This document shows, one piece after another, positions 3,307 to 45,200 of a DNA stretch of 64,000 bases. The notes below the pieces were generated by a model. That model was not told the origin of the DNA. It worked only from the letters and a program-made list of their open reading frames with translations, and searched no databases. A program made the position numbers and the translations under genes. Numbering within the stretch: the first letter of the stretch is position 1; every line of letters begins with the position of its first letter. The stretch is from contig DASTCJ010000210.1 of the NCBI GenBank assembly GCA_035605575.1, forward strand, positions 78,750-142,749. The letters run 5' to 3'. This DNA comes from Candidatus Methylomirabilota bacterium (GTDB lineage: Bacteria > Methylomirabilota > Methylomirabilia > Rokubacteriales > CSP1-6).

Positions 3307-3345
3307 GTGCTCGGCCGTCGGCGTGAGCGCGCGGACGGTCCGCCG

Positions 3346-4305: not shown

Positions 4306-4306
4306 T

Positions 4307-5179: not shown

Positions 5180-5180
5180 G

Positions 5181-12682: not shown

Positions 12683-13662
12683 GCGGTCAGCTCGCGTGCA
12701 AGCGCGCGCTGGCGCGCCAGGCGCTCGCCGCCGAAGAGCTCGAGATAGTCGTCGTACGTCGCCGGCGCATGGACGTAGCGCTCGAGGTACTCGACCACGG
12801 CCCGGGGGCCGCGGGCGTCGATGGCGGAGGTGTAGTCGCCGAAGTGCTCGTAGTCCGCTTCGTAGAGGCCGTAGCACTCGTGTGGGTACGAGCCGAACGG
12901 TACGTGCACGAGGGCGTCCACCAGGAATCCCGGAATGACCGTGCGATCCGGGTGCCGTCGCGTCTCATCCTCCGGAACGATCTCCTCGGTGGTCATCAGC
13001 ACGGTCGTCGCCGCGCGTGCGATGTCGGCGTCCATGTGCGGATAGCCGTCGATCTGCGCGTTGCCGAAGCGATCGGCCCGGTGGACGTGCAGGATGGCCA
13101 CTTCCGGGAACAGCGCGGGGACGGCGCCCAGCGACTCACCCGAGTACGGATCGACCACCGTCTTCATGCCGCCGACGTCCACGAGGTCGGAACCGAGCAT
13201 CGTCAGTGACGGCACGAATGGCACGCCCATGGCTGCCGCGCGGAAACGCAGCCCGAGCGCGAGGTGGCTCCACTCCTCCAGCGCCACGGCGCCGCTTTCC
13301 ACGTAGTGGCGCATGATCTTCGACACGCCCCACGGCAGCCCGATCGACATCCACGCCGTCATGACGCGCTCGACGGCGCCGGCGGCCATCATGAACTCGC
13401 CTTCGGTGCACATCAGGTTGCGCACGAGCGTGAGTCGCGTCCGGCGCTGGCGGAGGATCTCGCGGACGAGGGCCATCGGCGTGCGGGAGAACAGGCAACC
13501 ACCGACGGCAATGCGATCGCCATCGGCCACGCGCGCGATGGCGTCCTCCACCGAGGTCAGCTTGTCGCTCGAGGATTTCGCCTTGGACTCCAGTCGGCGC
13601 CGCGCCGCGATGAAGTCCCAGTCGGCCGGTCTCAGGTGAGGATCTCCCACTTCGCCTGCCAC
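12679..13662 (-). CDS. Family I CoA-transferase alpha subunit (GctA/CatI-like)
   Basis: V.DGD.I..GG....R.PMALVRE, RFRAAAMGVPF, A..HV.RAD..GN. Start uncertain (13662 or 13650). Confidence 0.88.
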   Translation of the reverse strand: MAGEVGDPHLRPADWDFIAARRRLESKAKSSSDKLTSVEDAIARVADGDRIAVGGCLFSRTPMALVREILRQRRTRLTLVRNLMCTEGEFMMAAGAVERVMTAWMSIGLPWGVSKIMRHYVESGAVALEEWSHLALGLRFRAAAMGVPFVPSLTMLGSDLVDVGGMKTVVDPYSGESLGAVPALFPEVAILHVHRADRFGNAQIDGYPHMDADIARAATTVLMTTEEIVPEDETRRHPDRTVIPGFLVDALVHVPFGSYPHECYGLYEADYEHFGDYTSAIDARGPRAVVEYLERYVHAPATYDDYLELFGGERLARQRALARELTA

Positions 13663-29800: not shown

Positions 29801-29830
29801 TTGACAGTCCCCGCGCGGCGAGGCTATGCT
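29801..29830 (+). promoter_or_regulatory. Sigma-70 promoter for the NitT/TauT ABC operon
   Basis: TTGACA-N18-TATGCT, followed by SD AAGGAGG (29841-29847) and ATG 29856. Confidence 0.7.
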
Positions 29831-29855
29831 GCCGCATTCCAAGGAGGATTCTTCG

Positions 29856-30923
29856 ATGCAGTGGACCCGGCGTCACTTCCTGAGCGCCGCCAGTTCGGCC
29901 GCCATCGTGACGGGGGCGTCACGCCGCGCGCGCGCTCAGACGGGGAAGCCCATCACCGTCTCGCACAGCGTTTCGACGTTCGTGTACGGCCAGCACCTCG
30001 TCGCCCGCGAAAAGAAATTCTTCCAAGACGAGCACGTGTCGCTGCCTGGCTTCATCGTGCCGGGTGGCGGCGCCCGCGTCGTGAACGCCGTCACGGCGGG
30101 GCAGGCGATGTTCGGCCTGGGCGACTCGAATCACCCGCTGAAGGCCACGGAGAAGGGCCGCGACACGGTGATGCTGTTCGCCACCGACACGCGCTGTAGC
30201 TACGCCAACGTCGTCGTGCGGAAAGATCTGTGGGACAAGGGCGTGAAGTCCGTGGAGGCGCTCGCCGACGCCACCCTGGTCGGACGCAAGGCGATCGTCG
30301 CGGCCACGGCCATTGGGTCGGGCACCTATGTGTATGGCGTGTACGTCCTGCGCCAGAGCAAAGCCGGCGACGGCCGGCCGGTGAACGACGCCGTGGAGTG
30401 GGTGGGCGGTGGCGCGTCGACGACGATGCTGGGCGGACTCAAAGCCGGCAAGTTCGACGCCATCATGGCCGTTCCGGAGTGGCAGTGGGCGGCCGAGGAG
30501 GAGGGCTTCGGCAAGGCGATCTACGACGTGCAGGACGAGAAGGCGTGGAATCGTGTCTTCGGCGGACCCATCCCGGTCACCGTCGGCTACACGCTGCGCG
30601 AGACGATCGAGAAGTCGCCCGACCTCGTGCAGGCCTACGTCAACGCCATCTATCGCGCACAGCAGTGGATCCGTCGCGCCAAGGACGAGGAGATCGCCGA
30701 GGTCATCCACAAGCCGTACATGGACACGTTCAGCCGCGAGATCGTGCTGCGCTCGATCCGCTACTACAAGACCATTTTCGACTGGGACTTCGCCATCGAG
30801 GAGAAGGACTACGAGAACGGCCTGAAGGTCTTCGTGCCCATCGCCGTCGACAAGCCGCTGCCGTTCACGAAGGTGGTCGACGCCTCATTCCTCAAGAAGG
30901 CTCAGGCGAAGTACAGGTCCTGA
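29856..30923 (+). CDS. NitT/TauT-family ABC substrate-binding protein (Tat signal)
   Basis: TRRHFL Tat motif, strong SD, class II PBP features, first gene of an SBP-ATPase-permease operon. Confidence 0.85.
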   Translation: MQWTRRHFLSAASSAAIVTGASRRARAQTGKPITVSHSVSTFVYGQHLVAREKKFFQDEHVSLPGFIVPGGGARVVNAVTAGQAMFGLGDSNHPLKATEKGRDTVMLFATDTRCSYANVVVRKDLWDKGVKSVEALADATLVGRKAIVAATAIGSGTYVYGVYVLRQSKAGDGRPVNDAVEWVGGGASTTMLGGLKAGKFDAIMAVPEWQWAAEEEGFGKAIYDVQDEKAWNRVFGGPIPVTVGYTLRETIEKSPDLVQAYVNAIYRAQQWIRRAKDEEIAEVIHKPYMDTFSREIVLRSIRYYKTIFDWDFAIEEKDYENGLKVFVPIAVDKPLPFTKVVDASFLKKAQAKYRS

Positions 30924-31711
30924 ATCCGCGACGCGCACGCATCGTCGTTCGCGAGCTCCGCAAGGCGTTCCGGGCCGGCTCGCGGGAGGTGCCGGCCGTC
31001 GCCGGTGTGTCGTTCGACGTGATGGACGGTGAATTCATCGCGCTCGTCGGCCCGTCCGGCTGCGGCAAGTCGACGATCCTCAACATGATCGGCGGTCTGG
31101 TGCCACCGTCGTCCGGCGCGATCGAGATCGACGGCGTCCCCGTGAGCGGCGCGGCGCCGCCGAACGTCGGCTACGTCTTCCAGAAGGACACCGTGTTCCC
31201 GTGGCGCACCGTCGCGCGCAACATCGCGCTCGGCCTCGAGTACCGCGGGCTCGGCGCCGCCGAGCAGAGCCGTCGCGTGCGCGAGGCGATCGCGCTGGCC
31301 GGCCTGAGCGGATTCGAGGACGCCTTTCCGGCCACGCTCTCGGGCGGGATGCGCCAGCGCGTGGCGCTCATGCGGTCGCTCGTCGTGGAGCCGGCCATCT
31401 TGCTGATGGATGAGCCGTTCGGTGCGCTCGACACGCACACGAAGATCGGCCTCCACGCCGAGCTGCTCGCGCTGTGGAGCGCGCGGCGCCAGACGGTCGT
31501 GTTCGTCACCCACGACCTGTCGGAGGCCATCACGCTCGCGGACCGCGTGGTGGTGATGACCCGGCGGCCCGGCCGCATCAAGATGGTTCACGACGTGAAG
31601 CTGCCGCGGCCGCGCGACGTGATCAAGGTGCGCGAGACCGACGAGTACGCGCGCGAGTACGGGCGGGTGTGGCACGTGCTCGGCGAGGAGTTCGCGGAGC
31701 GCGAGCCGTGA
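30920..31711 (+). CDS. NitT/TauT-family ABC ATP-binding protein (probable CTG start)
   Basis: GPSGCGKST, YVFQKD.VFPWRT, LSGGMRQR, LMDEPFGALD, FVTHD..EA..L.DR. Confidence 0.93.
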   Translation: MNPRRARIVVRELRKAFRAGSREVPAVAGVSFDVMDGEFIALVGPSGCGKSTILNMIGGLVPPSSGAIEIDGVPVSGAAPPNVGYVFQKDTVFPWRTVARNIALGLEYRGLGAAEQSRRVREAIALAGLSGFEDAFPATLSGGMRQRVALMRSLVVEPAILLMDEPFGALDTHTKIGLHAELLALWSARRQTVVFVTHDLSEAITLADRVVVMTRRPGRIKMVHDVKLPRPRDVIKVRETDEYAREYGRVWHVLGEEFAEREP

Positions 31712-32523
31712 ACGGCCGCGCGCCGGTGATCGTCTGGCGGCTCATCATCCTCGTCGCGATCCTGGCCGCTTGGGAATGGCTGACCGGTGTCAAGGCGGTG
31801 AGCCGCTTGCCCGGACTGTACTGGGTCGACCCGTTCTTCATCAGCCGTCCGTCGGCCATCGTCGCGCGCTTCGCATTTCTGGCGTCAGATCGGGTGAGAC
31901 TCTCGATCTGGCAGATGGCGCTGTCGACGGTGCAGTCGACGCTCCTGGGGTTCGCGGCCGGCGTGTCGAGCGGATTCGCGGTGGGGCTCGTGCTGGGCCG
32001 GCACGACCGGCTGGCGCAGATCTTCGAGCCCTACATCGTCGCCTTCAACTCGCTGCCGCGCATCGCGCTGGTGCCGCTGATCACCATGGTCTTCGGCTTC
32101 GGCATCCTCGCGAAGGTCGTGCTGGCGTGGACGATCGTGTTCTTCATCGTCTTCTTCAACACGTTCCAGGGCGCGCGCTCCGTCGACGCCGATCTGATCC
32201 ACTCCGCGCGTTTCCTCGGCGCCGGCGAACGACAGATCATGCGGACGGTCATCATCCCGTCGGCCCTGGCCTGGACGTTCGCTGCCCTCACGCCGTCGAT
32301 CTCGTTCGCTCTCATCGGCGTGGTCGTTGGCGAGTTCCTTGGCGGCGAGTCGGGCGGCGGTCTCGGCTACCTGATCATCCAGTCGCTCGGAACGCTGAAT
32401 GCCGCCGACATGATGGTCGCGCTCGTGGCCCTCGGCGTGATCGGCATCGTGATGGCGCTCGGCATCAAACAGCTCGAGCGGCGGCTGCTCCGGTGGCGCC
32501 CGGAATATCGAGAGCGTGCGTGA
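31708..32523 (+). CDS. NitT/TauT-family ABC permease
   Basis: PFFISRPS, PY....NSLPRIAL.PL, EAA-like loop ARFLGA..RQI...V..P, VVGEF.G...GLGY.I. Confidence 0.92.
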   Translation: MNGRAPVIVWRLIILVAILAAWEWLTGVKAVSRLPGLYWVDPFFISRPSAIVARFAFLASDRVRLSIWQMALSTVQSTLLGFAAGVSSGFAVGLVLGRHDRLAQIFEPYIVAFNSLPRIALVPLITMVFGFGILAKVVLAWTIVFFIVFFNTFQGARSVDADLIHSARFLGAGERQIMRTVIIPSALAWTFAALTPSISFALIGVVVGEFLGGESGGGLGYLIIQSLGTLNAADMMVALVALGVIGIVMALGIKQLERRLLRWRPEYRERA

Positions 32524-32876
32524 CGCGCTGGGTGTTCGCCCTCTCGGCCCTTCTCCTGCTCGGCGGTATCACCACCGTCGCCGTGGCGCGGCGTCTGGGC
32601 AAATCAGGCTCGCGGCCGTCGGTGTTCGTCTCCGTTCTGGCGCTCTGGATCGCAGCGTGGGCGCTGTGGGGACTCGTCGGCGGCCTGGCCGCCCAGTATG
32701 GGTTGCTGCGACGTTACGACGCCACGTTCTTCGCGGCGCTGGCGCTGGCGGCGGGCGCGCTGCAATACCGGACGCAGGTCCGACAGGGACGCGAGCGCGG
32801 GCTCACCGTCTTCGTCGGCGCACAGATCCTCTGGCTCGTGGTGGTGATGGTGCGGAACGGCGTGCTCAGTCCCTGA
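32520..32876 (+). CDS. Hypothetical 118-aa membrane protein (about 4 TM)
   Basis: GTGA overlap with the permease stop, alternating hydrophobic segments. Confidence 0.65.
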   Translation: MTRWVFALSALLLLGGITTVAVARRLGKSGSRPSVFVSVLALWIAAWALWGLVGGLAAQYGLLRRYDATFFAALALAAGALQYRTQVRQGRERGLTVFVGAQILWLVVVMVRNGVLSP

Positions 32877-32888
32877 GCGCGCTGGCGG

Positions 32889-33467
32889 TCAGGCGCGGCT
32901 GCCAGGCTTGATCGCCTGACTGCCGCCCGCGCAAAGCGGACATGCTTCCGGGGGCCACGTCGTCGCGCTGACAGTGGCCAGCGCGCTGCGCTTGACGCCG
33001 AAGCTCACGGCGCCACCGCTGCGGTCGATCAGCGAGCCGACGCCGACCACGGCGCCACCGAGATCCTGCACGCATTGCATGACCTCGCGCGTGGAGCCGC
33101 CGGTGGTGATGACGTCCTCCACGACCAGACAGCGCTCGCCGGCCGCCAGGGAGAAGCCGCGGCGCAGCCGCATCACCCCGCCTTCGCGCTCCGTGAACAG
33201 CGCGCGCACGCCCAGCGCCCGCCCGACCTCGTGCGCGACCAGGATGCCGCCGATGGCGGGCGCGAGGACCGCGTGCACGCCGTCGGCGCGAAACGTCGCC
33301 GCCAGCCCGCGGCCGAGCGCCGCCGCGTGCTCGGGATACTGAAGGACGAGCGCCGACTGCAGATAAAGGTCGGAGTGCAGACCGGACGTCAGACGGAAGT
33401 GGCCGCGCATCAAAGCGCCCGTCTTCTCGTAGAGCGCCAGTGTCTGGCGTTCGTCCAGTGTCGTCAT
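32889..33467 (-). CDS. pyrE: Orotate phosphoribosyltransferase
   Basis: GHF.L.SG.HS..Y.Q.A, PA.GGI, PRPP motif LVVEDVITTGGS. Confidence 0.96.
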   Translation of the reverse strand: MTTLDERQTLALYEKTGALMRGHFRLTSGLHSDLYLQSALVLQYPEHAAALGRGLAATFRADGVHAVLAPAIGGILVAHEVGRALGVRALFTEREGGVMRLRRGFSLAAGERCLVVEDVITTGGSTREVMQCVQDLGGAVVGVGSLIDRSGGAVSFGVKRSALATVSATTWPPEACPLCAGGSQAIKPGSRA

Positions 33468-33473
33468 GGCCCG

Positions 33474-33479
33474 ATTCTA
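33474..33479 (-). promoter_or_regulatory. -10 element for leaderless pyrE
   Basis: TAGAAT-CGGGCC-ATG (6-nt spacing, no SD). Confidence 0.6.
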
Positions 33480-33640
33480 TGTCAGACCGGCCGGCGATTC
33501 GCCGACACCGGGCCATCTGGCACGCCAAGCTGTCCCGACCCGTGACGGCCTGATCCCGCGCACCCGACAGCGCGCGACGGCTTCGCTCGCGCGACCCCGA
33601 TTTACGGCGCGATCGGCGAATCTTCGCGGACGCGCCGCGC

Positions 33641-33656
33641 TGGCAACCGCGTTGCA
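33641..33656 (+). promoter_or_regulatory. Sigma-54 (-24/-12) promoter of the chemosensory/Roadblock operon
   Basis: TGGCAACCGCGTTGCA with exact GG-N10-GC spacing. SD AAGGAGG at 33681-33687, ATG 33697. Confidence 0.7.
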
Positions 33657-33696
33657 CTTCGCGGCCGGGCACGCTCACCCAAGGAGGCTCCGTGCG

Positions 33697-34059
33697 ATGG
33701 CGAAGGTGATGGTGGTCGACGATGCGGTTTCGGAGCTGAAGCTCATGGAATCGATCCTGAAGTCGGCCGGGCATGAGGTGGTGTCGCTGGTGGATGGCGA
33801 GGCGCTGGAGGACAAGCTCTCCAGCGAGCGCCCCGACGTGCTGCTGCTCGACATCGTCATGCCCAAGCGCAACGGTTACGAGATCCTCCGCGCGCTGCGC
33901 AAGGACGCCCGCACGAAGACGACCCCGGTCGTGCTCGTCAGCAGCAAGAACCAGGAGAGCGACCGCGCCTGGGGCAAGCGGCAGGGCGCCGACGAGTATC
34001 TCGGCAAGCCATTCACTTCGGACCAGCTCCTCACGATGGTGAAGCGCTTTGTCCGATGA
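33697..34059 (+). CDS. pilH: Single-domain response regulator, PilH-like
   Basis: VVDD, LLDIVMP..NG, SSKNQESDRAWGKRQGADEYL.KPF, which closely follows the PilH pattern. Confidence 0.85.
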   Translation: MAKVMVVDDAVSELKLMESILKSAGHEVVSLVDGEALEDKLSSERPDVLLLDIVMPKRNGYEILRALRKDARTKTTPVVLVSSKNQESDRAWGKRQGADEYLGKPFTSDQLLTMVKRFVR

Positions 34060-34573
34060 CGCGGTCACGTCCGCGCCGTCGGTGGACGCGGCGCCCGCCG
34101 GGGCCGCCACCGAGACCGCGGCCGCCCCGCGACACCGGGCGTGCATCATCACACTCGGCGGTCAGCCGTTCGCGGTGGATGTCCGGGAGGCGCGCGAGGT
34201 CGTCATCCTCGAGCCGTTGACGCCGGTGCCGGGGGCGCCGCCGCCGCTCATCGGAGTCGCCAACCTGCGCGGCAGCGTTCTCGGCGTCGCGGAGGCGCGC
34301 CCCCTCCTCGGCGTACCGGCACGACCGGTGACGACGGGCTCGCCTGCCCTGGTTATCGCGGCCGGCGAGCTCGTGGCCGCGATCCCCATCGACCGCGTGG
34401 TCGGTCTCGACTGGTTCGATGAGCCGCAGCCGCTCGATGCCAATGACCGCCGGCCCGGCGTCGCGTTCGCCGCCGGGCTCGTACCGCACGCGGGTGACTA
34501 TGCCACGCTACTCGATGCTGGCCGGCTCCTGGACGCGCTGCGCGCGCCATGGGCGTCGGTCGCGGAGGCCTGA
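34049..34573 (+). CDS. cheW: CheW/PilI-like coupling protein
   Basis: LGGQ.FAVDV...REV......TPVPGAP..L.GV.NLRG....V. Start uncertain (TTG). Confidence 0.88.
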   Translation: MSDDAVTSAPSVDAAPAGAATETAAAPRHRACIITLGGQPFAVDVREAREVVILEPLTPVPGAPPPLIGVANLRGSVLGVAEARPLLGVPARPVTTGSPALVIAAGELVAAIPIDRVVGLDWFDEPQPLDANDRRPGVAFAAGLVPHAGDYATLLDAGRLLDALRAPWASVAEA

Positions 34574-34576
34574 TCC

Positions 34577-35905
34577 ATGAACCGTCGCCACTTTCTCGGA
34601 ATGCTCGCCGGCTCGCTCGTCCCCGGCGCCCCGCGCGCGTGGGCGCAGTCCCGCCCGGTTGGTGGTCGTGTCGCACCGGCCGAGCCGACGCCCGTGCGCG
34701 TGGCGACGCCGGCGGTGGCTGCCGTCCCCGGCGTCACGGCCCACGACATCCGGGTCGGCATGAGCGCGGCCTTCCGCGGCACCGCCGCGGGTCTCGGCAC
34801 CGAGTTCTACCGCGGCGCCCAGGCGTACTACAACGACGTCAACGGCAAGGGCGGCGTGCACGGTCGCGGCATCAGCGTGATCGCGCTCGACGACGGCTAC
34901 GAGCCCATTCCGTGCGTGAAGAACACCATTCGTCTCCTCGAAAAGGAGCCGGTGTTCCTGCTGTCCAACTACGTCGGAACGCCGACCCTGACGCGCGCGC
35001 TGCCGGTCATCAAACGCTACGCGGAAACACAGGCCGTGCTCGTCGGCAACTTTACGGGAGCGCAGCCGCAGCGCGAAGCACCGTATGCGGAGCACGTCTT
35101 CAATATCCGCGCCTCGTACCGGCAGGAGATGATGGCGCTGGTCGACCGCTTCTGGCAGCTCGGAGCCCGCAAGTTCGGTGTGTATTACCAGATCGACGCC
35201 TACGGCCGCAGCGGCACCGACGGCGTCGCCCGCGGCCTCGCCCAGCGCGGCGTCCGCATCGTGGCCGAGGCGACCTATCCACGCGGCGCCAAGTTCACCG
35301 ACGACATGACGCCAGCCGTGAACGCGCTACGCCGCGGAGGCGTCGACGTCGTGCTCTGCACGGGCGCCTATCAGGGCTGTGGGGCCTTCGTGCGGACCGC
35401 CCGCGACGCCGGCTGGACGGTGCCGATCTCGAACCTGTCCTTCGTGGGCTCCGAGGCGATGCTGGCGCTGCTCGTCAAGCACGGCAAAGCCGTCGGTCGT
35501 GATTACACGCGGGCGCTCGTGAACTCGCAGGTCGTGCCGAGCTACGACGACGTCAGCCTGCCGGGCGTGGCCGAGTATCGGCTGCTCATGGACCGACACA
35601 ATCCGCCGCTGCCCGAGTCGCTGCGCGATCCGAGCTACGCGCTGCAGCGCTACAGCTTCATCAGCCTCGAGGGCTTCGTGAACGCGAAGGTCATCGTCGA
35701 GGCGCTCCAGCGCACCGGGCCACAGCCGACCCGCGTGGCCTTCCGGCAAGCCCTCGAGTCGTTGCGCAACTTCGATCTGGGTATCGGTTCGAGCTTGAGC
35801 TTCGGCCCAGAGCGGCACCAGGGACTCGACTCCGTGTACTTCACCCGCGTCGACGGCGAGCGATGGATTCCCATCGCCGACTGGGCCGCGGCAATTTCGG
35901 TGTAG
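34577..35905 (+). CDS. Orphan type-1 periplasmic binding protein (LivJ-like fold, Tat signal) within the chemosensory operon
   Basis: MNRRHFL, I.VGMSAAF.G....LG, N..GGV.GR.I..IALDD.Y.P, FN.RASY..E. No permease or ATPase adjacent. Confidence 0.88.
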   Translation: MNRRHFLGMLAGSLVPGAPRAWAQSRPVGGRVAPAEPTPVRVATPAVAAVPGVTAHDIRVGMSAAFRGTAAGLGTEFYRGAQAYYNDVNGKGGVHGRGISVIALDDGYEPIPCVKNTIRLLEKEPVFLLSNYVGTPTLTRALPVIKRYAETQAVLVGNFTGAQPQREAPYAEHVFNIRASYRQEMMALVDRFWQLGARKFGVYYQIDAYGRSGTDGVARGLAQRGVRIVAEATYPRGAKFTDDMTPAVNALRRGGVDVVLCTGAYQGCGAFVRTARDAGWTVPISNLSFVGSEAMLALLVKHGKAVGRDYTRALVNSQVVPSYDDVSLPGVAEYRLLMDRHNPPLPESLRDPSYALQRYSFISLEGFVNAKVIVEALQRTGPQPTRVAFRQALESLRNFDLGIGSSLSFGPERHQGLDSVYFTRVDGERWIPIADWAAAISV

Positions 35906-35916
35906 GGGGCCTTCAC

Positions 35917-37692
35917 ATGACATCTGTGCGCCTTCGCTTCGGACTGCTGCCCAAGATGGTCGTGTTCCTGGCCGTCGTTCTCATCCCGCTGGCCGCGATC
36001 ACCTGGTATGTCTCCGTGCAGCGGCTGCGCGCCGAGATGACGGACGAGTTCACGTCGAAAGGAACCGCCATCGCGAACAGCCTGGCCTCCTCCGGCGTCG
36101 ATTTGATCCTCACGCGCGACGCCTCGACCGTGCAGGCACTCATCGACCAGTTCGTGAGCATCAGCGGCGTGCATTACGTCATGGTGTACGACTCGCAGAA
36201 GAACCTCATTGCGCATACGTTCCACCCCGTGGTGCCGCCCGACCTCATCGACAAGAACCTCGTGCCCGGCGACGCCGCCAAGCAGGTGCGCGACGTCGTC
36301 TATCAGCATCCCGTCACCGGTGAGTCGCAGGAGATCATCGACGTCGGCGTGCCGATGCTGGGTGGCCAGCTCGGCACCGTCCGCGTCGGCATGAACAAGG
36401 CGATCATCCACGCCGCTGCCGCCCGGGCGGGCTGGTTCCTGTCCGAGGTGTTCGGCGGCATCGCGCTGCTGGCCGTCCTCGCCGGCGCCATGTTCGCGAC
36501 CCGCCTGACGCAACCGATCAGCGCCATCGTCCGTGTCGCCGAGCACGTCGGTCGCGGAGATCTGTCGCAGACGGTGACCGTCCAGTCGCGCGACGAGATC
36601 GGGCAGCTCGCCCGTACCTTCAACGACACGATCGTGCGGCTGCGGGCCCACGTCACCACCGAGGCCGAACGCGACGAGGAGCGCCGCCGCCGCGAGAGCC
36701 TGCAGGCGAACATCACGCAGTTCCTTGAGACAATGACGGAGATCGCCCAGGGCGATCTGCGCCAGCGCGGCCAGGTGACCCCGGACGTCCTCGGCAACGT
36801 CGTGGACTCCGTGAACGTCATGGTCGAGGAGATCGGCGCCCTCCTCGCCGATGTCCGCCACGCGGCCACGCGCGTGGCCACGAGCGCCGGCGAGATGATC
36901 GGGGCCACCGACCAGGTGGCGCGTGGCGCCGAGACGCAGGCGCGCGACGCCACCACCGTGAGCCGCGAGGTGGAGACGATGACGCGGTCGGTGCGGCAGA
37001 TCGCGTCGAACGCGGGCTCGGCGGCCACCGCCGCGCGCCAGACGCTGCAGGCGGCCACGCGCGGCGAGGACGCCGTGCGCAACAGCCTGTCCGGCATGCA
37101 GCGGATCCGCGGCGAAGTGCAGGTCATCTCGAAGAAGATCAAGAGCCTCGGCGACCGCTCGCTCGAGATCTCGAACATCGTCGACACCATCGAGGAGATC
37201 GCCTCGCACACGAACCTCCTGGCGCTGAACGCGGCCATCGAGGCGGCCGGGGCCGGCGAGTACGGCGCGCGCTTTGCCGTGGTCGCCGATGAGATCCGCA
37301 AGCTCGCCGAGCGCGCGGCCAGCGCCACCAAGGACATCGCCGGCCTCATCCGCTCGGTCCAGACGGAGACGCAGGAGGCGGTCGTGGCGATGGAGGAAGG
37401 TACGCGAGAGGTCGAGGCGGGCTACCAGGTGACCATCAACGCCGAGGAGAGCTTGAAGCAGATCGCCGGCATTTCGCGCACGTCGGCCGAGCTCGCCGAG
37501 GAGATCTCCGGCGTCACTCAGGAGCAGGTGCGCGGCGCCGAAGGCGTGGCCACCGCCATGCGGTCGATCGCCCAGGTCGCCGTACACACCGAGCAGGCGG
37601 TGCTGCAGACGCGCCGGACGGTCGACGATCTCGTGAAAGTCGCCGACGAGCTCACCCGAAGCCTGTCACGGTTCAAGCTGGCGACCGCCTAG
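35917..37692 (+). CDS. Methyl-accepting chemotaxis protein (PilJ-like, two HAMP domains)
   Basis: Two TMs around a periplasmic domain, HAMP1 and HAMP2, signalling tip TNLLALNAAIEAA.AGE.G..FAVVADEIRKLAE. Confidence 0.95.
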   Translation: MTSVRLRFGLLPKMVVFLAVVLIPLAAITWYVSVQRLRAEMTDEFTSKGTAIANSLASSGVDLILTRDASTVQALIDQFVSISGVHYVMVYDSQKNLIAHTFHPVVPPDLIDKNLVPGDAAKQVRDVVYQHPVTGESQEIIDVGVPMLGGQLGTVRVGMNKAIIHAAAARAGWFLSEVFGGIALLAVLAGAMFATRLTQPISAIVRVAEHVGRGDLSQTVTVQSRDEIGQLARTFNDTIVRLRAHVTTEAERDEERRRRESLQANITQFLETMTEIAQGDLRQRGQVTPDVLGNVVDSVNVMVEEIGALLADVRHAATRVATSAGEMIGATDQVARGAETQARDATTVSREVETMTRSVRQIASNAGSAATAARQTLQAATRGEDAVRNSLSGMQRIRGEVQVISKKIKSLGDRSLEISNIVDTIEEIASHTNLLALNAAIEAAGAGEYGARFAVVADEIRKLAERAASATKDIAGLIRSVQTETQEAVVAMEEGTREVEAGYQVTINAEESLKQIAGISRTSAELAEEISGVTQEQVRGAEGVATAMRSIAQVAVHTEQAVLQTRRTVDDLVKVADELTRSLSRFKLATA

Positions 37693-37698
37693 CTGGAC

Positions 37699-40473
37699 AT
37701 GATGGAGTCGGCCGACCGGGAGTTTCTGCGCTCCATCTTTCTGATGGAGGCGTGGGAGACCGTCGCGGCTCTCGAGGATGGCGCGGAGGCGGCCGCCCGC
37801 GGCGACCTGGAGACGCTGTATGTCGTCACCCACCGTCTCAAGGGCGCCGCGTCGCTCTACGGCTTTCCCGCGATCGCCGCGCTCGCCGGCGATCTCGAAG
37901 CCGTCCTCGAGACGACGCCGTTCCCCGCCGTCCGTCTCGCGTCGCTGCTCGCAGATCTCAAGCGCGCGCTGGACTCGCTGCCCGCCGGCACAACGGTGGC
38001 GACCGCCGTGCAACCGGCCGCCGCGCCGTCTGCGCACGAGAGCGGTGATGCCGCCGACTCGGTGCTCGACGACCCGATCCGCCGCGAGCTCGCGGAGTTC
38101 TTCGCCGCCAACGTCGACGTCGCAGCGTATTTCGTGCCGGAGGCGACCGAGCATCTGGAGGCGATCGCGACGGCGCTCCTCGCGCTCGAGCGCGGCGGCG
38201 GCGAGGACGAGCTGGCGCGGTTGTTCCGCTCGATGCACACGATCAAGGGCGCCGCCTACGTCGTCGGCTGCGTGCGCATCGGTGAGCTGGCCCATCGCGC
38301 CGAGGATTTGCTGGTCGCGGTGCGCGAAGGCGAGGCGACGCTGTCGCCGCCGGCTCTCGAGGCGTTGTTTGCCGCGGTGGACGTCCTGAAGCTCATGCTT
38401 GGCATCAATGCGAATCCGACGGCGTCCATGACGACGCTGGCCGCGGACGTCGGCGGCCGGCTGGAGGCACTGCTCGCATCGCCGCCGACCCCGCGTGCAA
38501 TGGACGCGGCACCGGTGCCGCCGGCACCGGCCATGGCGGATACGCGTGTCGAGGCGCTGGTACCGGCGCGCGCGGCGCGGCGCCGCGCGCCGGCCTCGAG
38601 CGCGACGCCGCGGCGCGCGCCACGACAGACGATTCGCGTCAACCTCGAGCGCCTCGATGCGCTCATGGACCTGATCGGCGAGCTCGTGACCGGGCGCAGT
38701 CGCGTCGACCGCCGCCTCGACGAGCTGGATCGCGTGTCGGCATCGCTGTTCGCCAGTCGCGCCCGCCTGGCCGAGGCCGTGAGCGAGTTCGAGCGCCGGC
38801 AGCTCGACCCGCGACGCGCCAGCGTCGCGAAGCCAGCGGCGCCGGTCAAGCCGACCGTGATCGGCCAAAGCGGTCTATCAGTGGCCGAGATGTTCGCGGA
38901 GCTGGAGTTCGATCGGTACGACGACGCCGGCATGTTCGCCCGCAGCATCGCCGAGATCGCCTCGGACATCGCGGAGCTCCAGGCCGAGCTCGTCGGGGTG
39001 AACCGCGCGCTGCGTGACGACGTGGCCCAGGTGCACCGGCTGACGGCCGCCATTCGCGGCGAGATCGGTCGCGCGCGGCTGGTGCCCGTCGGCAATCTGT
39101 TCACGCGGTTCGTCCGTCAGGGCAAGGAAGCAGCCCGCGCGGCCGGCAAGCAGGTGCAGATCGAGACGCTCGGCGAGACGGTCGAGCTGGATACGTCGGT
39201 CATCGAGCAGATCGTGGACCCGCTGCTGCACCTCGTGCAGAACGCCATCGGGCATGGCATCGAGTCGGTGGACGAGCGGCGCGCTCGCGGGAAGCCGCCG
39301 ATCGGCGCCGTCACGCTGTCGGCGACGCATCAGGGCGGCGCCGTCGTGCTGGAGGTCGCCGACGACGGGCGCGGAATCGATACCGACCTCGTACGGCGCC
39401 GCGCGGTGGCGCGCGGATTCGTCAGCGCGGACAACGCGGCCGCCCTCAGCGATCGCGAGGCCATCGACCTCATCTTCCTGCCCGGCTTCAGCACCGCGAC
39501 CGCCGTGACGACGGCATCGGGTCGTGGCGTGGGCATGGATGTCGTTCGCACCAACGTTCGGCGACTGAACGGCGAGGTCGACGTGGCGTCGACCCCGGGC
39601 GAGGGCACGCGCTTCACGCTTCGGCTGCCCCTCACCGTGCTCGTGTCGGAGGCGCTGCTCGTGAGCGCCGGCGGCGAAACGTTCGCCGCTCCCCTGAACT
39701 CCGTGCAGCTGGTGACGGCCGTTTCCCCCGAGCGCGTCCGACCCGGGGTGCAGGGCGAAACGCTGAGCCTCGCCGAGGACACCGTCGATCTGGTGAGCCT
39801 GGCGACCATCCTTGGATTGCCGGAACCGCCGCGCGGTGCCCGTCGCCCCGCGGTGGTGCTGCGGGCGGCCGGACGCTCGCTCGGCGTCGAAGTGGACCAG
39901 CTCCTGCACAAGCAGGACATCGTCATCAAGCCGCTGGGGGCGTTTCTCGAGGGCGCCGGTCCGTACGCCGGGGCCACGGTCACTGCCGACGGCCGCGTGG
40001 TGCTGCTCCTCGACGCGCTGGGTGTCGCCGAGCAGGCCGCGCGCCGCGCGCGCGCCGAGCGCGCCGCGCCCTTGGCCGTCGATGCGACCAGCCGCCCGGC
40101 CGCGCGCAAGCGGGTGCTCCTCGTGGACGACTCGATCAGCGTGCGGCGGTTCGTCGGCCAGATGCTCGAGAAAGCGGGCTTCGAGGTCACCACCGCCGCC
40201 GATGGTGCCGACGCGATCGCCCGTGTCGGCGAGGGCGGTCGTTTCGACGTCGTCGTGACCGACCTCGAGATGCCGCGTGTGAATGGGTACGAGCTCATCG
40301 ACGATCTGCGCCGGCGCCCGTCCACGCGGGGGCTGCCGGTGATCGTCCTGACGACTCGCGCCGGCGACAAGCACGTCGCGCTTGCCCGGGACCTCGGTGT
40401 CGACCACTACGTCACGAAGCCGGTCGAGGAACGGACGTTCGTGTCCCTTGTGAGCTCGGTGGTGCACGGGTGA
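37699..40473 (+). CDS. cheA: Hybrid CheA/ChpA-like kinase (Hpt-Hpt-dimerisation-HATPase-CheW-REC)
   Basis: Hpt1 THRLKGAA, Hpt2 MHTIKGAA, RVNLERLD.LM.L.GEL, HLVQNAIGHGIE, DDGRG, LPGFSTA...SGRGVGMDVV, CheW domain, C-terminal REC (VTDLEMP..NG, KP). Confidence 0.95.
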   Translation: MMESADREFLRSIFLMEAWETVAALEDGAEAAARGDLETLYVVTHRLKGAASLYGFPAIAALAGDLEAVLETTPFPAVRLASLLADLKRALDSLPAGTTVATAVQPAAAPSAHESGDAADSVLDDPIRRELAEFFAANVDVAAYFVPEATEHLEAIATALLALERGGGEDELARLFRSMHTIKGAAYVVGCVRIGELAHRAEDLLVAVREGEATLSPPALEALFAAVDVLKLMLGINANPTASMTTLAADVGGRLEALLASPPTPRAMDAAPVPPAPAMADTRVEALVPARAARRRAPASSATPRRAPRQTIRVNLERLDALMDLIGELVTGRSRVDRRLDELDRVSASLFASRARLAEAVSEFERRQLDPRRASVAKPAAPVKPTVIGQSGLSVAEMFAELEFDRYDDAGMFARSIAEIASDIAELQAELVGVNRALRDDVAQVHRLTAAIRGEIGRARLVPVGNLFTRFVRQGKEAARAAGKQVQIETLGETVELDTSVIEQIVDPLLHLVQNAIGHGIESVDERRARGKPPIGAVTLSATHQGGAVVLEVADDGRGIDTDLVRRRAVARGFVSADNAAALSDREAIDLIFLPGFSTATAVTTASGRGVGMDVVRTNVRRLNGEVDVASTPGEGTRFTLRLPLTVLVSEALLVSAGGETFAAPLNSVQLVTAVSPERVRPGVQGETLSLAEDTVDLVSLATILGLPEPPRGARRPAVVLRAAGRSLGVEVDQLLHKQDIVIKPLGAFLEGAGPYAGATVTADGRVVLLLDALGVAEQAARRARAERAAPLAVDATSRPAARKRVLLVDDSISVRRFVGQMLEKAGFEVTTAADGADAIARVGEGGRFDVVVTDLEMPRVNGYELIDDLRRRPSTRGLPVIVLTTRAGDKHVALARDLGVDHYVTKPVEERTFVSLVSSVVHG

Positions 40474-41507
40474 AAGTCTTGATCGTCGACCCCGACGCCG
40501 CGCGCGCGGCGACGGTGGCCGCGGCGTTCACCGCCAATGGCGCGCAGCCCACCGTCGCGCCGAGTGCCTCGTTCGCGCTCACGATGCTCGAGTGGAATCG
40601 GCAGGACGTGATCATCAGCCGCTCGCAGCTCGGCGACATGGACGCGCACGAGCTGTGCTCCATGGTGCGTGGCGACCCCTCGACGGTTGGCGTGAGCTTC
40701 GTCCTGATCGCCAGCCCCATTCCGACCTCGCAGATGTCGCTGACGGGGGTCGATCTCGTCATTCCGGATGGACTCGTCGGTCCGGCGATCGTCACGCGCG
40801 TGACGCATCTGATGCGACGCAAGGCGCCGAGCAGCGCTGCCCTGCCATCGGCGCTGCCCGCGGCGCCCGCCAGGCCGCCCGCGGTCACGCCGGTGGCGCC
40901 GCTGGTGACAGAGCCGCTGTCGCTGACGCCCACACCGCCGGCAACGTCGATCCCCGCGCCAACGGACCCGGTCGTCGCGGCGCCCGCGGTGCCGACGCTC
41001 GTCGCATTGCCGCCAGCCGTCTCGAGTGCGCCGCCCGCTCCGCCATCACCGGTCGCGCCCGCGGCCACGCCGCCGGTCGTGGCGCCGACGGCCGGCGTCA
41101 TGCTGAAGGGGGCGGCGCCGCCACCGCCTCCGCTCACCGAGCTGGAAGCGGTCGGGATGAACGGCGCCATGCGGACGTTTCAGGGCGCGCTCGGAGCGCT
41201 CGCGCTCGAAGATATCGCGCGGGCCATCGTCAAGGGCACCAAGACGGGGCGCCTGCTCGTCGTGCTCGGCACCGGCGGCGGCATGTTGGCGTTCGAGAGC
41301 GGTCGCATCGTGCACGCCGAGATCGGCAACACCACCGGCGAGACCGCGTTCCGGTCGCTGCTGGCCGCGTCGCATGGCGACGCCGGCGGCAAATTCTGCT
41401 TCATTCCATCGTCGCCACGCGATCTCGCCAACGTCCCGAAGACGATTACTCGCACGGTGGCCGAGCTTCTGGCCGGCGCCGCCGAGGCGACGAACGAGGA
41501 GAGATAA
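40470..41507 (+). CDS. Pseudo-receiver + Pro/Ala-rich linker + DUF4388 (PATAN-like) protein
   Basis: REC-like N-terminus (KVLIVDPD, DVIISRSQL). C-terminal FQG.L..L.L.DI.......KTG.L.V......G.L.F..G.I.HA......GE.AF..L....G.F.F. Confidence 0.75.
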   Translation: MKVLIVDPDAARAATVAAAFTANGAQPTVAPSASFALTMLEWNRQDVIISRSQLGDMDAHELCSMVRGDPSTVGVSFVLIASPIPTSQMSLTGVDLVIPDGLVGPAIVTRVTHLMRRKAPSSAALPSALPAAPARPPAVTPVAPLVTEPLSLTPTPPATSIPAPTDPVVAAPAVPTLVALPPAVSSAPPAPPSPVAPAATPPVVAPTAGVMLKGAAPPPPPLTELEAVGMNGAMRTFQGALGALALEDIARAIVKGTKTGRLLVVLGTGGGMLAFESGRIVHAEIGNTTGETAFRSLLAASHGDAGGKFCFIPSSPRDLANVPKTITRTVAELLAGAAEATNEER

Positions 41508-41510
41508 ACC

Positions 41511-42470
41511 ATGCCCAAGGTCCTGGTCATCGACGACAGCGTCAGCGTGCGGAAGGTCGTGGAGCGCGCGCTGGCGGGAAGGCAGGTCGACGTCACCTGC
41601 GCAGCGTCGGGCACCGACGCGCTGGAGTGCATGGAGCGCGATGCCCCGGACGTCATCATCTGCGACGTCGTCATGCCGGATCGTGACGGCTACGAGATCT
41701 GCGAGTTCGTGAAGAAGCATCCGCGACTGGGCGAGATTCCGGTGCTGCTGATGTCGGGCATCGTGAACGACGAGGTCAAGCAGCGGGCGGCGCGCGCCCG
41801 TTCCGAGGGAGTGCTGGCCAAGCCGTTCGCCGCCGAGGATCTGCTCAAGCGTCTGGAGACACTCGTCGGTCCGCTCGCGCCGCGCGTGGCCGAGGCGACG
41901 ACGCCGAACGCTCCGGCGCCGTCGCCCGCCGTCGACGCGATACCGACGTTGATGCCGGTCTCCACACTGTCGGTGCCGCCGATCGAGCCGCTCAAGTCGA
42001 CACCGCCGAAGCCGGCGCCGGCGGTACCGGCGGTCGCCGCCGACATCACGCCATCCGACTCTGCACGTCGCGTGGCCGAGCCCGTGGCCATCGCGCCGAC
42101 GTCGGCGGTGGCCGCACCGACCGACGCGGCGGCCGCCGTCCTCGCGCAGTTCACCGCGATGAACGGCGTGCAGTGGGCGGTGTTGTCGGATCGCGAGGGC
42201 TTCGTGGTCGAGGCGACCACCAACGCCGGCGTCGATGCCGATGTCGCGGCCGCGCTGAGCGCGTGTCTGGCCGAGTCGTCGGACGGGCTCGGCAAGGAGC
42301 TTGGCCGGGGTGGCCTGCACAGCATCATGCTCGAGTACGAGAAGGGCATGGTGATCGTCTACAGCGCCGGCCTCGGGCTGCTCGCCGTCGGTATGAGCGA
42401 GCCCGCCGTCCTCGGCAAGGTGCGCTACTTCGCCAAGAAGGCGCTGCCGGAGCTGATGCGGTCGGTGTGA
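41511..42470 (+). CDS. Response regulator + Pro/Ala-rich linker + Roadblock/LC7 domain
   Basis: Intact REC (IDDS, CDVVMP, KPF). C-terminal L......GV..AVL.DREGFVV, AAL.A.L......G.EL..G.L..I.LEY..G.V. Confidence 0.85.
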   Translation: MPKVLVIDDSVSVRKVVERALAGRQVDVTCAASGTDALECMERDAPDVIICDVVMPDRDGYEICEFVKKHPRLGEIPVLLMSGIVNDEVKQRAARARSEGVLAKPFAAEDLLKRLETLVGPLAPRVAEATTPNAPAPSPAVDAIPTLMPVSTLSVPPIEPLKSTPPKPAPAVPAVAADITPSDSARRVAEPVAIAPTSAVAAPTDAAAAVLAQFTAMNGVQWAVLSDREGFVVEATTNAGVDADVAAALSACLAESSDGLGKELGRGGLHSIMLEYEKGMVIVYSAGLGLLAVGMSEPAVLGKVRYFAKKALPELMRSV

Positions 42471-44356
42471 TGCCGCGCTATCGCAAGTCGGAAACCCGTT
42501 GGGTGCATGCGGCATGCGTCGCGGGCGGCTATCTCGTCTGCGTCGCGGGCCTGTTCACCCTGCAGGCCGGCGCCGGCTTGAACGTGCCGATCTCGGTGGC
42601 GGTGTCGGCGCCGCCCCTGGTGTATGCGGCGTTGGCGGTGCTGCTGCTGCGGGAGGCCGCCTTCGTCCGACGCCTCTCCTGGCTCGGCGGTGCCTGTCTC
42701 GTGCACGTCGTTCTCGCCGGGCTGGCGGCGACGGAGCTCGCCTGGGCCGGCGGCCTGTCGCTCGGCAACGCTCTCGCGCAGGTGTTCGTACTGTTCCCTC
42801 CCGCCCCGCTGCTCACGCTGATCGCGACGCCGCTGATCCTCGCGACATTCGGGATGACCGCGTCCAGACCGGCGCCCCGTTCTGACGCCGCCGCGCCGCG
42901 GTTGGCGACCGGCACGCGATCCAGGGGCGTCATTCCGTCTCCGCGCGCTGCCGGCGCCGCGGCCGAGAGCGCGCCGACTGCCGCGCGGACGATCGCGCCA
43001 CCGACCACCCGCGTGGCTCCTTCCGTCGTGCCGATCGCCTCGACGCCGTCGCCCACGACACCGCCGGCCGTCGTTGCGCCGGCACCGACGGCGCCGCGCA
43101 CGAATCCACCGTCGAAGCCCGGCCGAGCGGCCAACGACGGCATGGTGCGCGTGCCGTTCGACCGAATCGCCGCGCAGCTTCCCGCCGAGGCATTCGTGCT
43201 GCCGTTCGAGCGACTTGGGGAAAGCCTCCGCGAGCCGCATGTGATCCTCGTCCCGCGGCGCGTCGTGCTCTCGCAGATGCGCGACGGCGCGGTCGTCATC
43301 ACGTGGGCGCACATCGCATCGCAGTTTCCGGACCTCGCGCTTGGAATGACGGGCGACCAGTTCCGAAAGGAATATCCCGATCTCAAATTCGTGCTGCCCG
43401 TGGACGAGCTGGACGCTCAGCTCACGCCCGACGCCGTCGGCACCGCGCCGGTCTCGGCGCCGTTGCCGGTCGTGGCGCCGAAACCGTCCGCGGTCCCCGC
43501 GCGAGCAGACGTCACGCCGACCCCGGCCGCGACAGTGGAGGCGCCCGCGTCGTCGCGGGCGCCCGCGGCGGCCAGCACCACGCCGGCTGCACGCGCGTTG
43601 CCCCGATCCGCACCGAGTTCACCACCGCCGGCGGAGATGATGGATCGCGGGACGCTGGCGCGCATCGTCGCCTGCTTCAGCGGGGTCGGCACGTTCGAAG
43701 CTGCGGCCGAGCGGAACGCGGGCACCGTGGCCGTGGTACTGGTCGAGCCAGGGGTGTCGCGCGAAGCGGCCATCGCCTGCGCCGGCCGGCTCCTGCCGTT
43801 CGTCGCGGGCGTTTCCGCCGACGTCGTCACGCTGCGTACCGAACGAACGGTGCTGGTGCTTGCCGCCGCGTCAGCACCGATCGTCGTTGCCGTGCATCGG
43901 CCCAACGCCTCGGTCGCGCTACTGGCGCTTCGAGCGCTGAGCGCTGCCGCCATTGCGGGCACCATCCCGCCGGCCACTCCAGCGCCACCGCGTCGCGATC
44001 TCGAGCCGATGGGATCCGATGATCGTGTGGCGCGCGCGGCGCTGGCGCTGCGGACTTTTGGCGGCGCCGAGCCGACCGTCTTCGCCGACGCGAGCGGGCG
44101 TGTGTACGTCTTCAGCGGCGGCGGAGGCGATGACAAGGGCGTGGCGGCCCTGGCTCTCGGTGTCGTCGAGGCACTCGGCGATGGCGGTGAGCTCGGGGCT
44201 CCGGTCACCGTGGTGTTCCGGCGCGGCGCCGAGCAGACGGTGATCCGTCCGCTCTCCGGGCGCGCGGGCGTTCTCGCCGCCACGGGCGTGGTGACGCGGC
44301 CGGGCCGCGCCCTGCGGGATGCCGAGCGGGCGGCGGCGGTCCTCGAGACGCGCTGA
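42470..44356 (+). CDS. Hypothetical 628-aa membrane-anchored scaffold (N-terminal TM bundle, Pro-rich linkers, internal repeat domain, two probable degenerate Roadblock-like domains)
   Basis: ATG shares one base with the upstream stop, and its own stop shares one base with the downstream ATG. Domain calls come from visual secondary-structure patterning only. Confidence 0.7.
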   Translation: MPRYRKSETRWVHAACVAGGYLVCVAGLFTLQAGAGLNVPISVAVSAPPLVYAALAVLLLREAAFVRRLSWLGGACLVHVVLAGLAATELAWAGGLSLGNALAQVFVLFPPAPLLTLIATPLILATFGMTASRPAPRSDAAAPRLATGTRSRGVIPSPRAAGAAAESAPTAARTIAPPTTRVAPSVVPIASTPSPTTPPAVVAPAPTAPRTNPPSKPGRAANDGMVRVPFDRIAAQLPAEAFVLPFERLGESLREPHVILVPRRVVLSQMRDGAVVITWAHIASQFPDLALGMTGDQFRKEYPDLKFVLPVDELDAQLTPDAVGTAPVSAPLPVVAPKPSAVPARADVTPTPAATVEAPASSRAPAAASTTPAARALPRSAPSSPPPAEMMDRGTLARIVACFSGVGTFEAAAERNAGTVAVVLVEPGVSREAAIACAGRLLPFVAGVSADVVTLRTERTVLVLAAASAPIVVAVHRPNASVALLALRALSAAAIAGTIPPATPAPPRRDLEPMGSDDRVARAALALRTFGGAEPTVFADASGRVYVFSGGGGDDKGVAALALGVVEALGDGGELGAPVTVVFRRGAEQTVIRPLSGRAGVLAATGVVTRPGRALRDAERAAAVLETR

Positions 44357-44799
44357 TGAGCGCGCGCCTCGCCATCGGCGACGGAGACATGGGGAAGGTC
44401 CAAGCGCTCCTGGAGCGCCTGCTCGCGGACACCGGTTGCGCTGCCGTCGTGCTGAGCGGCCGTGACGGCGCATCGCTTGCCACTGCTGGCGCCGCCCGCG
44501 CGCTCGACGTCGTGTCGATGACGGCGCTGGCGGCCGGCGGCTTCAGCTCGACGGCGCCGCTGGCCCGGCTCCTCGGGGAGCGCGAGTTCTCCGTCCTCAT
44601 TCACGAAGGGGTGCGCCAGAGCCTGCACGTGAGCGCCGTCGACGACGCGACGATCCTGGTGGCGGTGTTCGACGAGCGGACGACGGTCGGAATGGTTCGC
44701 GTCTTCGCGCGCGAAGCAGCGGCTAAGCTCGCCACCATCCTCGACGAAACGCGAGCGGGATCGGGCCATGCGCGCCGATCGGGGCCGGGCGAGACGTGA
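44356..44799 (+). CDS. mglB: MglB-like Roadblock/LC7 protein
   Basis: Aligns by eye with Myxococcus MglB: L.RL..D.....V.L....G..L..AG....D..S...L.AG.......LA.L.GE.EF....HEG...SL....V....LV..FD.RT..G.VR. Confidence 0.8.
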   Translation: MSARLAIGDGDMGKVQALLERLLADTGCAAVVLSGRDGASLATAGAARALDVVSMTALAAGGFSSTAPLARLLGEREFSVLIHEGVRQSLHVSAVDDATILVAVFDERTTVGMVRVFAREAAAKLATILDETRAGSGHARRSGPGET

Positions 44800-45200
44800 C
44801 ACCGCGCCTCAAGCTCGCCATGGAGCACGACGGGCCGTCGCGCGGCCGGTTCGTGCGCGACGTGGTGCAGCAGCTCCTGAAGCTCCGCGCGGTGCGCGGC
44901 GCGCTCCTGGTCGCCCCGGATGGCTTCGTGATCGCCGCCGAAGTGCCGAACGCGGTGGCGATCGAGCCACTGGCTGCGATGGCGGCACGGCTGGGCCGCG
45001 ATCTCGAGTCGAGCGCGGGGAGGATGGGTCGCGCGTCCTTCTCGACGGCGATGTTCTCGGGGCCGGACGGGCCGATGTTCCTCGCGGCGGCACCGATCGG
45101 CTACGTGGTCGTGCTCGCCGAGCAGCGCGCCAACCACGAGGCCATCCGCAGCGCTACCGAGGAGGCCGTCGCGCTGCTCCAGAGCGCCTGGACTGATTAG
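44796..45200 (+). CDS. Roadblock/LC7 domain protein (MglC-like)
   Basis: L.....VRGALLV.PDG.VIA, LAAMAA.L...L......G...F.......G..F. GTGA overlap with mglB. Confidence 0.8.
   Translation: MTPRLKLAMEHDGPSRGRFVRDVVQQLLKLRAVRGALLVAPDGFVIAAEVPNAVAIEPLAAMAARLGRDLESSAGRMGRASFSTAMFSGPDGPMFLAAAPIGYVVVLAEQRANHEAIRSATEEAVALLQSAWTD

Follow-up and report, generated by a model that had tools for sequence, protein, structure and literature searches.

The window analysed here, a stretch of 64,000 nucleotides from a soil Rokubacteria genome (phylum Methylomirabilota), carries a chemosensory operon in which a gene for a periplasmic binding protein (PBP) lies between cheW and the gene for a methyl-accepting chemotaxis protein (MCP). 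It is likely that this PBP is a dedicated ligand-binding co-receptor for the only chemoreceptor of the organism, docking on a Cache domain that receives binding proteins, and it most likely supplies the ligand specificity of that receptor. A preliminary description of this DNA had proposed a purpose-encoded co-receptor for the MCP. The proposal has strong comparative support from the near-universal adjacency of the two genes, the reuse of the pair with other outputs, and the divergence of the receptor's periplasmic domain where the PBP is lost, although this support stops short of proof.

In the proposed mechanism the PBP, exported by the twin-arginine translocation (Tat) pathway as judged by its motif, would bind a small molecule in the periplasm and, in one conformational state, dock on the adjacent MCP at its periplasmic domain, a single Cache. 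From there the signal would pass through the HAMP domain to the tip of the MCP, and via CheW and a hybrid CheA to receiver, DUF4388, and Roadblock proteins. The pathway would be non-flagellar and probably linked to type IV pili or polarity. Because only one MCP was found in the genome, the PBP would determine the only chemosensory input of the organism.

Co-occurrence of the binding protein and the sensor

A PBP-seeded scan of species-representative genomes identified 31 close loci, ~26 of which are of the Rokubacteria type. In all of these the order response regulator (RR), CheW, PBP, MCP, CheA is found wherever the contig reaches, and the PBP gene is upstream of the MCP in 30/30 MCP-seeded loci. 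Across the Rokubacteria loci the PBP is 70–89% identical, compared with 63–93% for the MCP, 45–78% for CheA, and 39–81% for CheW. It ranks with the MCP as one of the most highly conserved operon proteins, clearly ahead of CheA and CheW in every locus. Typical Rokubacteria operons were also seen in metagenome-assembled genomes (MAGs) labelled Candidatus Nitrosocosmicus (an archaeon), Verrucomicrobiia, and Binatia (L012, L018, and L030); these contigs are probably mis-binned.

When the sensor domain and the PBP were each used to search 251 Methylomirabilota genomes, the sensor was found directly after the PBP on the same strand in all 92 places with a PBP orthologue, spread over 91 other genomes, with 12–207 nt between the ends of the matches. 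This adjacency is far beyond chance. The same search returned 6 sensor places without a PBP match. The sensors in G109 and G099:C566 begin at a contig edge and the one in G246 lies at an assembly break. That in G245:C59 was discarded as a counter-example, being a degenerate remnant with a truncated kinase and the final 96 codons of the PBP gene. G154 and G198 are genuinely PBP-less: the order is RR-CheW-MCP-CheA, cheW and the MCP gene are <200 nt apart, and neither genome (completeness 93–94%) has a PBP orthologue at E ≤ 1e-60. The PBP is therefore present in 92 of the 94 assessable operons. A dedicated co-receptor should seldom be missing from orthologous operons, as the preliminary description had recognised, and frequent absence was not seen.

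Divergence of the receptor after loss of the binding protein

The PBP is present in 16 of the 21 sampled genomes of the genus to which G154 belongs, so its absence from G154 is most simply explained by loss. Domain-by-domain comparison of the MCPs of G154 and ten congeners, and of the congeners among themselves, gave the following identities:

Signalling domain: 82% identity between G154 and its congeners, 90% among PBP-bearing congeners
HAMP domain: 88% identity between G154 and its congeners, 91% among PBP-bearing congeners
Periplasmic domain: 59% identity between G154 and its congeners, 87% among PBP-bearing congeners

A regression of periplasmic on signalling-domain identity, fitted to 1378 pairs of PBP-bearing loci, left residuals of -15.6 for G154 and -5.6 for G198, compared with -3.7 to +2.4 for PBP-bearing loci. 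The domain-wise pattern in G154 suggests that the constraint which vanishes with the PBP is specific to the periplasmic domain. Such divergence is as would be expected if the conserved job of that domain were to receive the PBP.

A portable cassette with different outputs

Judged by its gene contexts, the PBP together with the transmembrane (TM)-sCache-TM-HAMP part of the receptor behaves as a portable two-gene sensor cassette. At four Betaproteobacteria MAG loci, a PBP with 63–72% identity is followed by a TM-sCache-TM-HAMP region (55–59% identical) fused to GAF-HisKA-HATPase. In Rokubacterium G165 a 47%-identical PBP precedes an sCache_3_2-HAMP-SpoIIE protein, a PP2C phosphatase whose gene neighbours that of an RsbW-like kinase. 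G110, G080, and G209 contain a second PBP-MCP pair, which is more distant. The cultured Deinococcus aetherius ST0316 carries a complete operon of RR, CheW, PBP (56% identical; WP_264777932), sCache_3_2 MCP, hybrid CheA, DUF4388, and RR on the 716 kb plasmid pDAETH-1 (L090, NZ_AP026561.1 198210–206603), which suggests transfer between phyla.

More distant PBP relatives, 35–39% identical, also lie directly upstream of sensors. These include an MCP in Ruegeria sp. TM1040, an MCP with a TorS-type sensor domain in Terrarubrum flagellatum, and a TorS-like hybrid kinase in Burkholderia. Other PBP relatives are fused to Ser/Thr kinases. A Rosetta-stone search yielded a single fusion, the 1127-residue predicted protein P0393, in which the MCP part comes first and a Peripla_BP_6 domain with 49% identity to the PBP forms the C-terminus. 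It was rejected as evidence: its topology would place the PBP in the cytoplasm, it occurs in a single assembly, and it may be a read-through of adjacent MCP and PBP genes.

Two of the kinase-type loci have further features of their own. At L023, from Betaproteobacteria, the genes flanking the PBP-kinase pair encode a divergent ABC transporter of the Liv type, together with a second PBP, and a zinc alcohol dehydrogenase (2851–7465 on the minus strand, and 12016–13002). The remnant in G245:C59 (L065, 5504–6921) is a decayed kinase-type cassette in which the last 96 PBP codons are 71% identical and the sensor and HAMP are intact, while the GAF-kinase part is reduced to its first ~70 residues, followed by a stop and unrelated sequence to the end of the contig. 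A zinc alcohol dehydrogenase also lies ahead of this remnant. These neighbours may hint at the class of ligand.

The sensor domain as a proposed receiver of binding proteins

An exhaustive search with the sensor domain returned 1035 cluster representatives. Among 76 of the longer sensor representatives listed, the outputs are 28 kinases, 20 MCPs, 13 SpoIIE proteins, and 1 GGDEF/EAL protein. Within the phylum, 19 weaker matches (~27–33% identical) were examined, of which 18 have upstream sequence; one at a contig start and one from an unpublished genome were omitted. Nothing concluded here depends on the unpublished genome G216. A gene for a solute-binding protein (SBP) lies directly upstream of the sensor in 18/18 assessable cases. 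In 6 of these it is a Phosphonate-bd SBP paired with a HisKA_3 kinase, and in the other 12 an SBP_bac_5 protein paired with a PAS-HisKA or plain HisKA kinase. G047 provides a further case of an SBP upstream of the sensor. At L086 (835–3218) the SBP_bac_5 gene upstream of the distant sensor kinase is present as a full copy plus a 160-residue N-terminal fragment, possibly through partial duplication or a frameshift.

The SBP partners of the sensor domain thus come from three unrelated families, which suggests specialisation for the docking of binding proteins, and from these gene neighbourhoods this appears to be a Cache subfamily that receives such proteins instead of free ligands. A literature search of incomplete coverage found no paper linking sCache_3_2 with SBPs. 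On balance, we lean towards the broader reading that the WalK-like sCache_3_2-HAMP unit is a general binding-protein receiver. The SBPs that it docks would belong to three or more unrelated families (Peripla_BP_6, Phosphonate-bd, and SBP_bac_5), and it would read no free ligand. With its SBP gene it would be portable into chemoreceptor, histidine-kinase, PP2C-phosphatase, and possibly output-less settings, and it would form the single input of a non-flagellar pathway in Rokubacteria and Deinococcus aetherius.

Organisation of the operon

The window has a GC content of ~70% and its relatives are Rokubacteria/Methylomirabilota MAGs. The operon genes lie on the plus strand with gaps or overlaps of only a few bases:

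33466–34059, plus strand: single-domain response regulator, first gene of the operon (Pfam Response_reg, E 1.1e-24; longest open reading frame (ORF), receiver at residues 81–193)
34049–34573, plus strand: CheW coupling protein (Pfam CheW, E 2.8e-20)
34577–35905, plus strand: PBP of 442 residues (Peripla_BP_6; Tat-type signal at residues 1–24)
35906–35916, plus strand: PBP-MCP spacer of 11 nt (sequence reading)
35917–37692, plus strand: MCP (Pfam; first TM helix, sCache_3_2, second TM helix, HAMP, MCP signalling domain)
37699–40473, plus strand: hybrid CheA with two Hpt domains, a dimerisation domain, HATPase, a CheW-like domain, and a C-terminal receiver (Pfam)
40470–45196, plus strand: downstream output module of DUF4388, receiver-Roadblock, a 629-residue protein without a Pfam match, Roadblock, and a small ORF (Pfam)

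The response regulator upstream of cheW is kept in related loci. The TGA stop of cheW (34571–34573) lies 3 nt ahead of the PBP gene, whose ATG at 34577 has a GGAGG motif 8 nt upstream. The PBP gene ends with TAG at 35903–35905 and the ATG of the MCP gene is at 35917, leaving a gap of exactly 11 nt, as the preliminary description had it. A run of G in this spacer could act as a weak Shine-Dalgarno site. The ORF, Pfam, AlphaFold2, and motif analyses equally bear out its account, exact in its coordinates, of a LivJ-fold PBP with a twin-arginine signal inside a chemosensory operon.

Transporter context

The genome assembly (4.76 Mb, 88.9% complete) contains 33 Peripla_BP_6 matches over the cut-off and 62 BPD_transp_2 matches, with ~31 permease pairs. 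This represents a large expansion of transport of the hydrophobic amino acid transporter (HAAT) type. Most of the Peripla_BP_6 paralogues are within ~2 kb of permease genes. For the PBP of the che operon, the distance to the nearest BPD_transp_2 match on the same contig is 29.6 kb, that match is accompanied by a PBP of its own, and no LivHM-type permease is found within 29 kb.

An NMT1-type binding protein, an ABC ATPase, and a 368-residue ORF without a Pfam match, which is probably the permease, lie upstream of the che operon at 29826–32876 on the plus strand. They are separated from it by a divergent phosphoribosyltransferase gene (32889–33467, minus strand). In several Rokubacteria loci (L004–L008 and L026) these three genes keep their synteny with the che operon. 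The NMT1-type system was rejected as the transporter of the PBP, as it belongs to another family, has its own SBP, and is set apart by the divergent gene. The earlier statement that there is no transporter is hence right for a cognate HAAT or LivHM type, but literally incomplete in that an unrelated NMT1-type ABC system lies upstream.

The presence of so many transporters raises the alternative that the PBP is an ordinary transport SBP for an unlinked HAAT (LivHMGF-type) transporter, with its place in the che operon incidental, or with a dual role in transport and taxis like MBP and DppA. This is unlikely. With ~31 permease pairs and 33 PBPs in the genome cross-use is conceivable, most known chemoreceptor-linked SBPs are transport proteins (PMC8050422), and at L023 the PBP-kinase pair lies beside a transporter. 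However, the L023 transporter has a second PBP of its own, and nearly every transporter locus in the genome has its own adjacent PBP. Conversely, the PBP is never apart from the sensor in 92/92 places, and its companion in different phyla and with different outputs is the sensor and not a transporter.

The chemoreceptor and its pathway

The MCP consists of an sCache_3_2 domain at residues 38–167 (36028–36417), a HAMP domain at residues 193–244, and a signalling domain at residues 372–554. Its periplasmic region of ~135 residues is a single sCache_3_2 domain, which scores 41.8 bits against Pfam PF17203 (cut-off 28.4). The AlphaFold2 model of this region (predicted local distance difference test score, pLDDT, 91.8) displays a single PDC/Cache fold. 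Foldseek places it nearest to WalK (5is1, TM-score 0.67), followed by CitA (1p0z) and DcuS (3by8).

Such folds bring in a second alternative, that the Cache domain of the MCP binds the signal directly and the PBP is an auxiliary modulator or second input of a two-input receptor. In its favour, small ligands are bound directly by sCache domains such as those of CitA and DcuS, the sCache receptor TlpB of H. pylori is listed as having SBP-mediated input (PMC8050422), and the MCP is retained without the PBP in two operons. Nonetheless, the drastic change of the periplasmic domain once the PBP is gone suggests an altered mode of sensing and not retained direct binding. The upstream SBP is also kept ahead of every assessable distant sensor homologue, and the extracellular domain of the top structural match, WalK, has been deposited as part of an integrative model that includes the accessory protein YycH (PDB 9a5d). 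A directly sensing Cache domain is accordingly a doubtful explanation, with a rather small share of the probability.

This MCP is the only MCPsignal match in the 88.9%-complete genome. In the same incomplete genome there is no match for flagellin, and there are 6 matches over the cut-off for T2SSE ATPases of the PilB/PilT family, one of them on the same contig ~15 kb before the window. The CheA has two Hpt stretches followed by H-kinase_dim, HATPase_c, CheW, and Response_reg, the arrangement which marks the hybrid CheA of the type IV pilus (Tfp) class, and the Joint Genome Institute (JGI) names orthologues of the MCP 'PilJ'. The MCP sensor itself is sCache_3_2 and not the PilJ-type domain (PF13675). 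The 'pilus-type pathway' of the preliminary description therefore agrees with the hybrid CheA, the lack of a flagellin match, the ATPases, and the JGI naming but not with the sensor of the MCP, and a pilus-type output is plausible.

The binding protein

The PBP matches Pfam Peripla_BP_6 (PF13458) over residues 58–427, a two-lobe domain, with an E-value of 1.3e-43 and a score of 150.4 bits (cut-off 31.7). Its AlphaFold2 model, based on a 28-sequence alignment, has a pLDDT of 87.8. Residues 1–47, comprising the signal peptide and a Pro/Ala-rich linker, are disordered, with the linker ending at about residue 47–55. The best matches by both Foldseek and sequence are LivJ-type proteins, namely 4kv7 from Rhodopirellula (TM-score 0.86) and 3lop from Ralstonia (0.83); leucine-bound 4n0q reaches a Foldseek TM-score of 0.85. 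The next matches by Foldseek or sequence are binders of amino acids, aromatic acids, fatty acids, urea, and amides. Motifs that are invariant among the PBP orthologues also occur in 4kv7, the nearest solved relative. The PBP is not a LivJ equivalog, as it scores 42.4 bits against NCBIfam NF011933 where the cut-off is 477.

The N-terminus, MNRRHFLG...AWA followed by QS, reads as a Tat-type motif with an AxA cleavage site between AWA and QS, by motif reading only. The strict-pattern RR motif is present in 107 of the 110 PBP orthologues of at least 430 residues, and the remaining 3 have a mis-called start or RRTAL. The PBP is thus presumably exported via Tat. Tat-like signals also occur in 11 of the 33 Peripla_BP_6 paralogues in the genome, about one third, with the others being Sec-type. 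The signal was hence rejected as a distinguishing mark, and the emphasis that the preliminary description placed on it as special does not hold. From these signal sequences Tat export would appear to be a general tendency of the organism which does not single out this PBP.

The score of the PBP is the second-lowest among the 33 paralogues over the Peripla_BP_6 cut-off and its conservation of 70–89% is unusually high for a sensor, as expected of a protein-protein interface, but a ligand-independent structural or regulatory receptor subunit (for stability, localisation, or array assembly) that senses no solute is the least probable of the alternatives, as the fold is a complete two-lobe LivJ-type domain in a high-confidence model, the orthologue-invariant motifs are shared with 4kv7, and the analogous cassettes use three unrelated SBP families whose common property is solute binding.

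Weighing of the co-receptor model

Several observations count against a dedicated ligand-binding co-receptor. The operons of G154 and G198 establish that the MCP can persist alone. The closest homologue in Ralstonia (~35% identical), which is probably 3lop-like, stands alone without a sensor. Both 4kv7 and 3lop are structural-genomics entries whose examined records state no ligand, and neither is mentioned in a paper surveying the ligands of SBPs. The conceivable role in transport through an unlinked permease points the same way. The trees of the PBP and the sensor recover the same clades; however, this congruence is weak support and is given little weight because neighbouring genes share their history and are co-inherited anyway.

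Relation to known systems

The principle of SBP-mediated sensing is already known. Activation of receptors by SBPs is established for MBP-Tar, LuxP/LuxQ, TorT/TorS, AioX/AioS, BasB/BasT, and CosB/CosT (PMC8050422). The genes for the SBP and receptor are neighbours in 10 of 11 characterised kinase cases, but in only 3 of 11 chemoreceptor cases (PMC11113362). The closest parallels are BasB/BasT and CosB/CosT of Halobacterium salinarum. In both, as here, the SBP gene is directly upstream of the transducer (MCP) gene, BasB is a Peripla_BP_6 protein, and both binding proteins are needed for the corresponding taxis, with mutants of the binding protein and of the transducer sharing a chemotaxis phenotype (PMC8050422). 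The view of the preliminary description that known chemoreception PBPs are borrowed from transport operons is therefore incomplete. BasB/BasT differs from the present pair in being archaeal, in the dCache-like and not sCache_3_2 sensor of BasT, and in driving the archaellum. The pair is also not described in that source as part of a che operon, whereas here the gene lies between cheW and cheA in a non-flagellar bacterium. The likeness of BasB to the PBP seen here is that of a shared Pfam family.

AioX/AioS, which senses arsenite in Agrobacterium, resembles the present system in that a dedicated SBP is encoded beside a sensor with an sCache-like periplasmic domain (PMC8050422). The layout of a Phosphonate-bd SBP, the family of AioX, before an sCache kinase, as seen for the distant sensor homologues, is that of AioX/AioS (PMC8050422). 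It differs from the che operon in its histidine-kinase output and in the SBP family of AioX, and AioS is like the MCP sensor by layout. LuxP/LuxQ and TorT/TorS likewise have transporter-less SBPs co-encoded with a membrane sensor, and these dock on its periplasmic domain. Their SBP families are different, as are their sensor folds (tandem PAS and the helical TorS domain) and their kinase outputs.

In E. coli, MBP-Tar, RBP/GBP-Trg, and DppA-Tap share with the proposed mechanism the principle of indirect chemoreception via a ligand-loaded periplasmic SBP. In contrast, their SBPs are transport components from transporter operons which dock on four-helix-bundle domains, and form one input among several to a flagellar pathway. 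WalK (YycG), whose extracellular sCache domain is structurally the closest to the periplasmic region of the MCP, has partners that are not SBPs and a kinase output that controls cell-wall metabolism. The NCBIfam HK_WalK model matches the TM-Cache-TM-HAMP part of the MCP with an E-value of 7.5e-16, far below the cut-off. The placement of an SBP gene within a che operon of a bacterium, the type of Cache domain involved, the single-receptor non-flagellar setting, and the modular reuse of the cassette are new relative to these systems.

Indirect sensing through SBPs is thought to be widespread, however it has been documented for about a dozen chemoreceptors, nearly all with transport proteins. The occurrence of an SBP gene of one of three families ahead of every assessable homologue in the Cache subfamily would provide a simple genomic rule for predicting SBP-dependent receptors, and the subfamily offers a defined domain on which a common docking surface could be mapped. 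The cultured carriers Deinococcus aetherius ST0316 and Ruegeria sp. TM1040, the latter with a more distant pair, make the model testable. Identification of a single ligand would show what the members of this uncultured phylum, abundant in soil, navigate or polarise towards.

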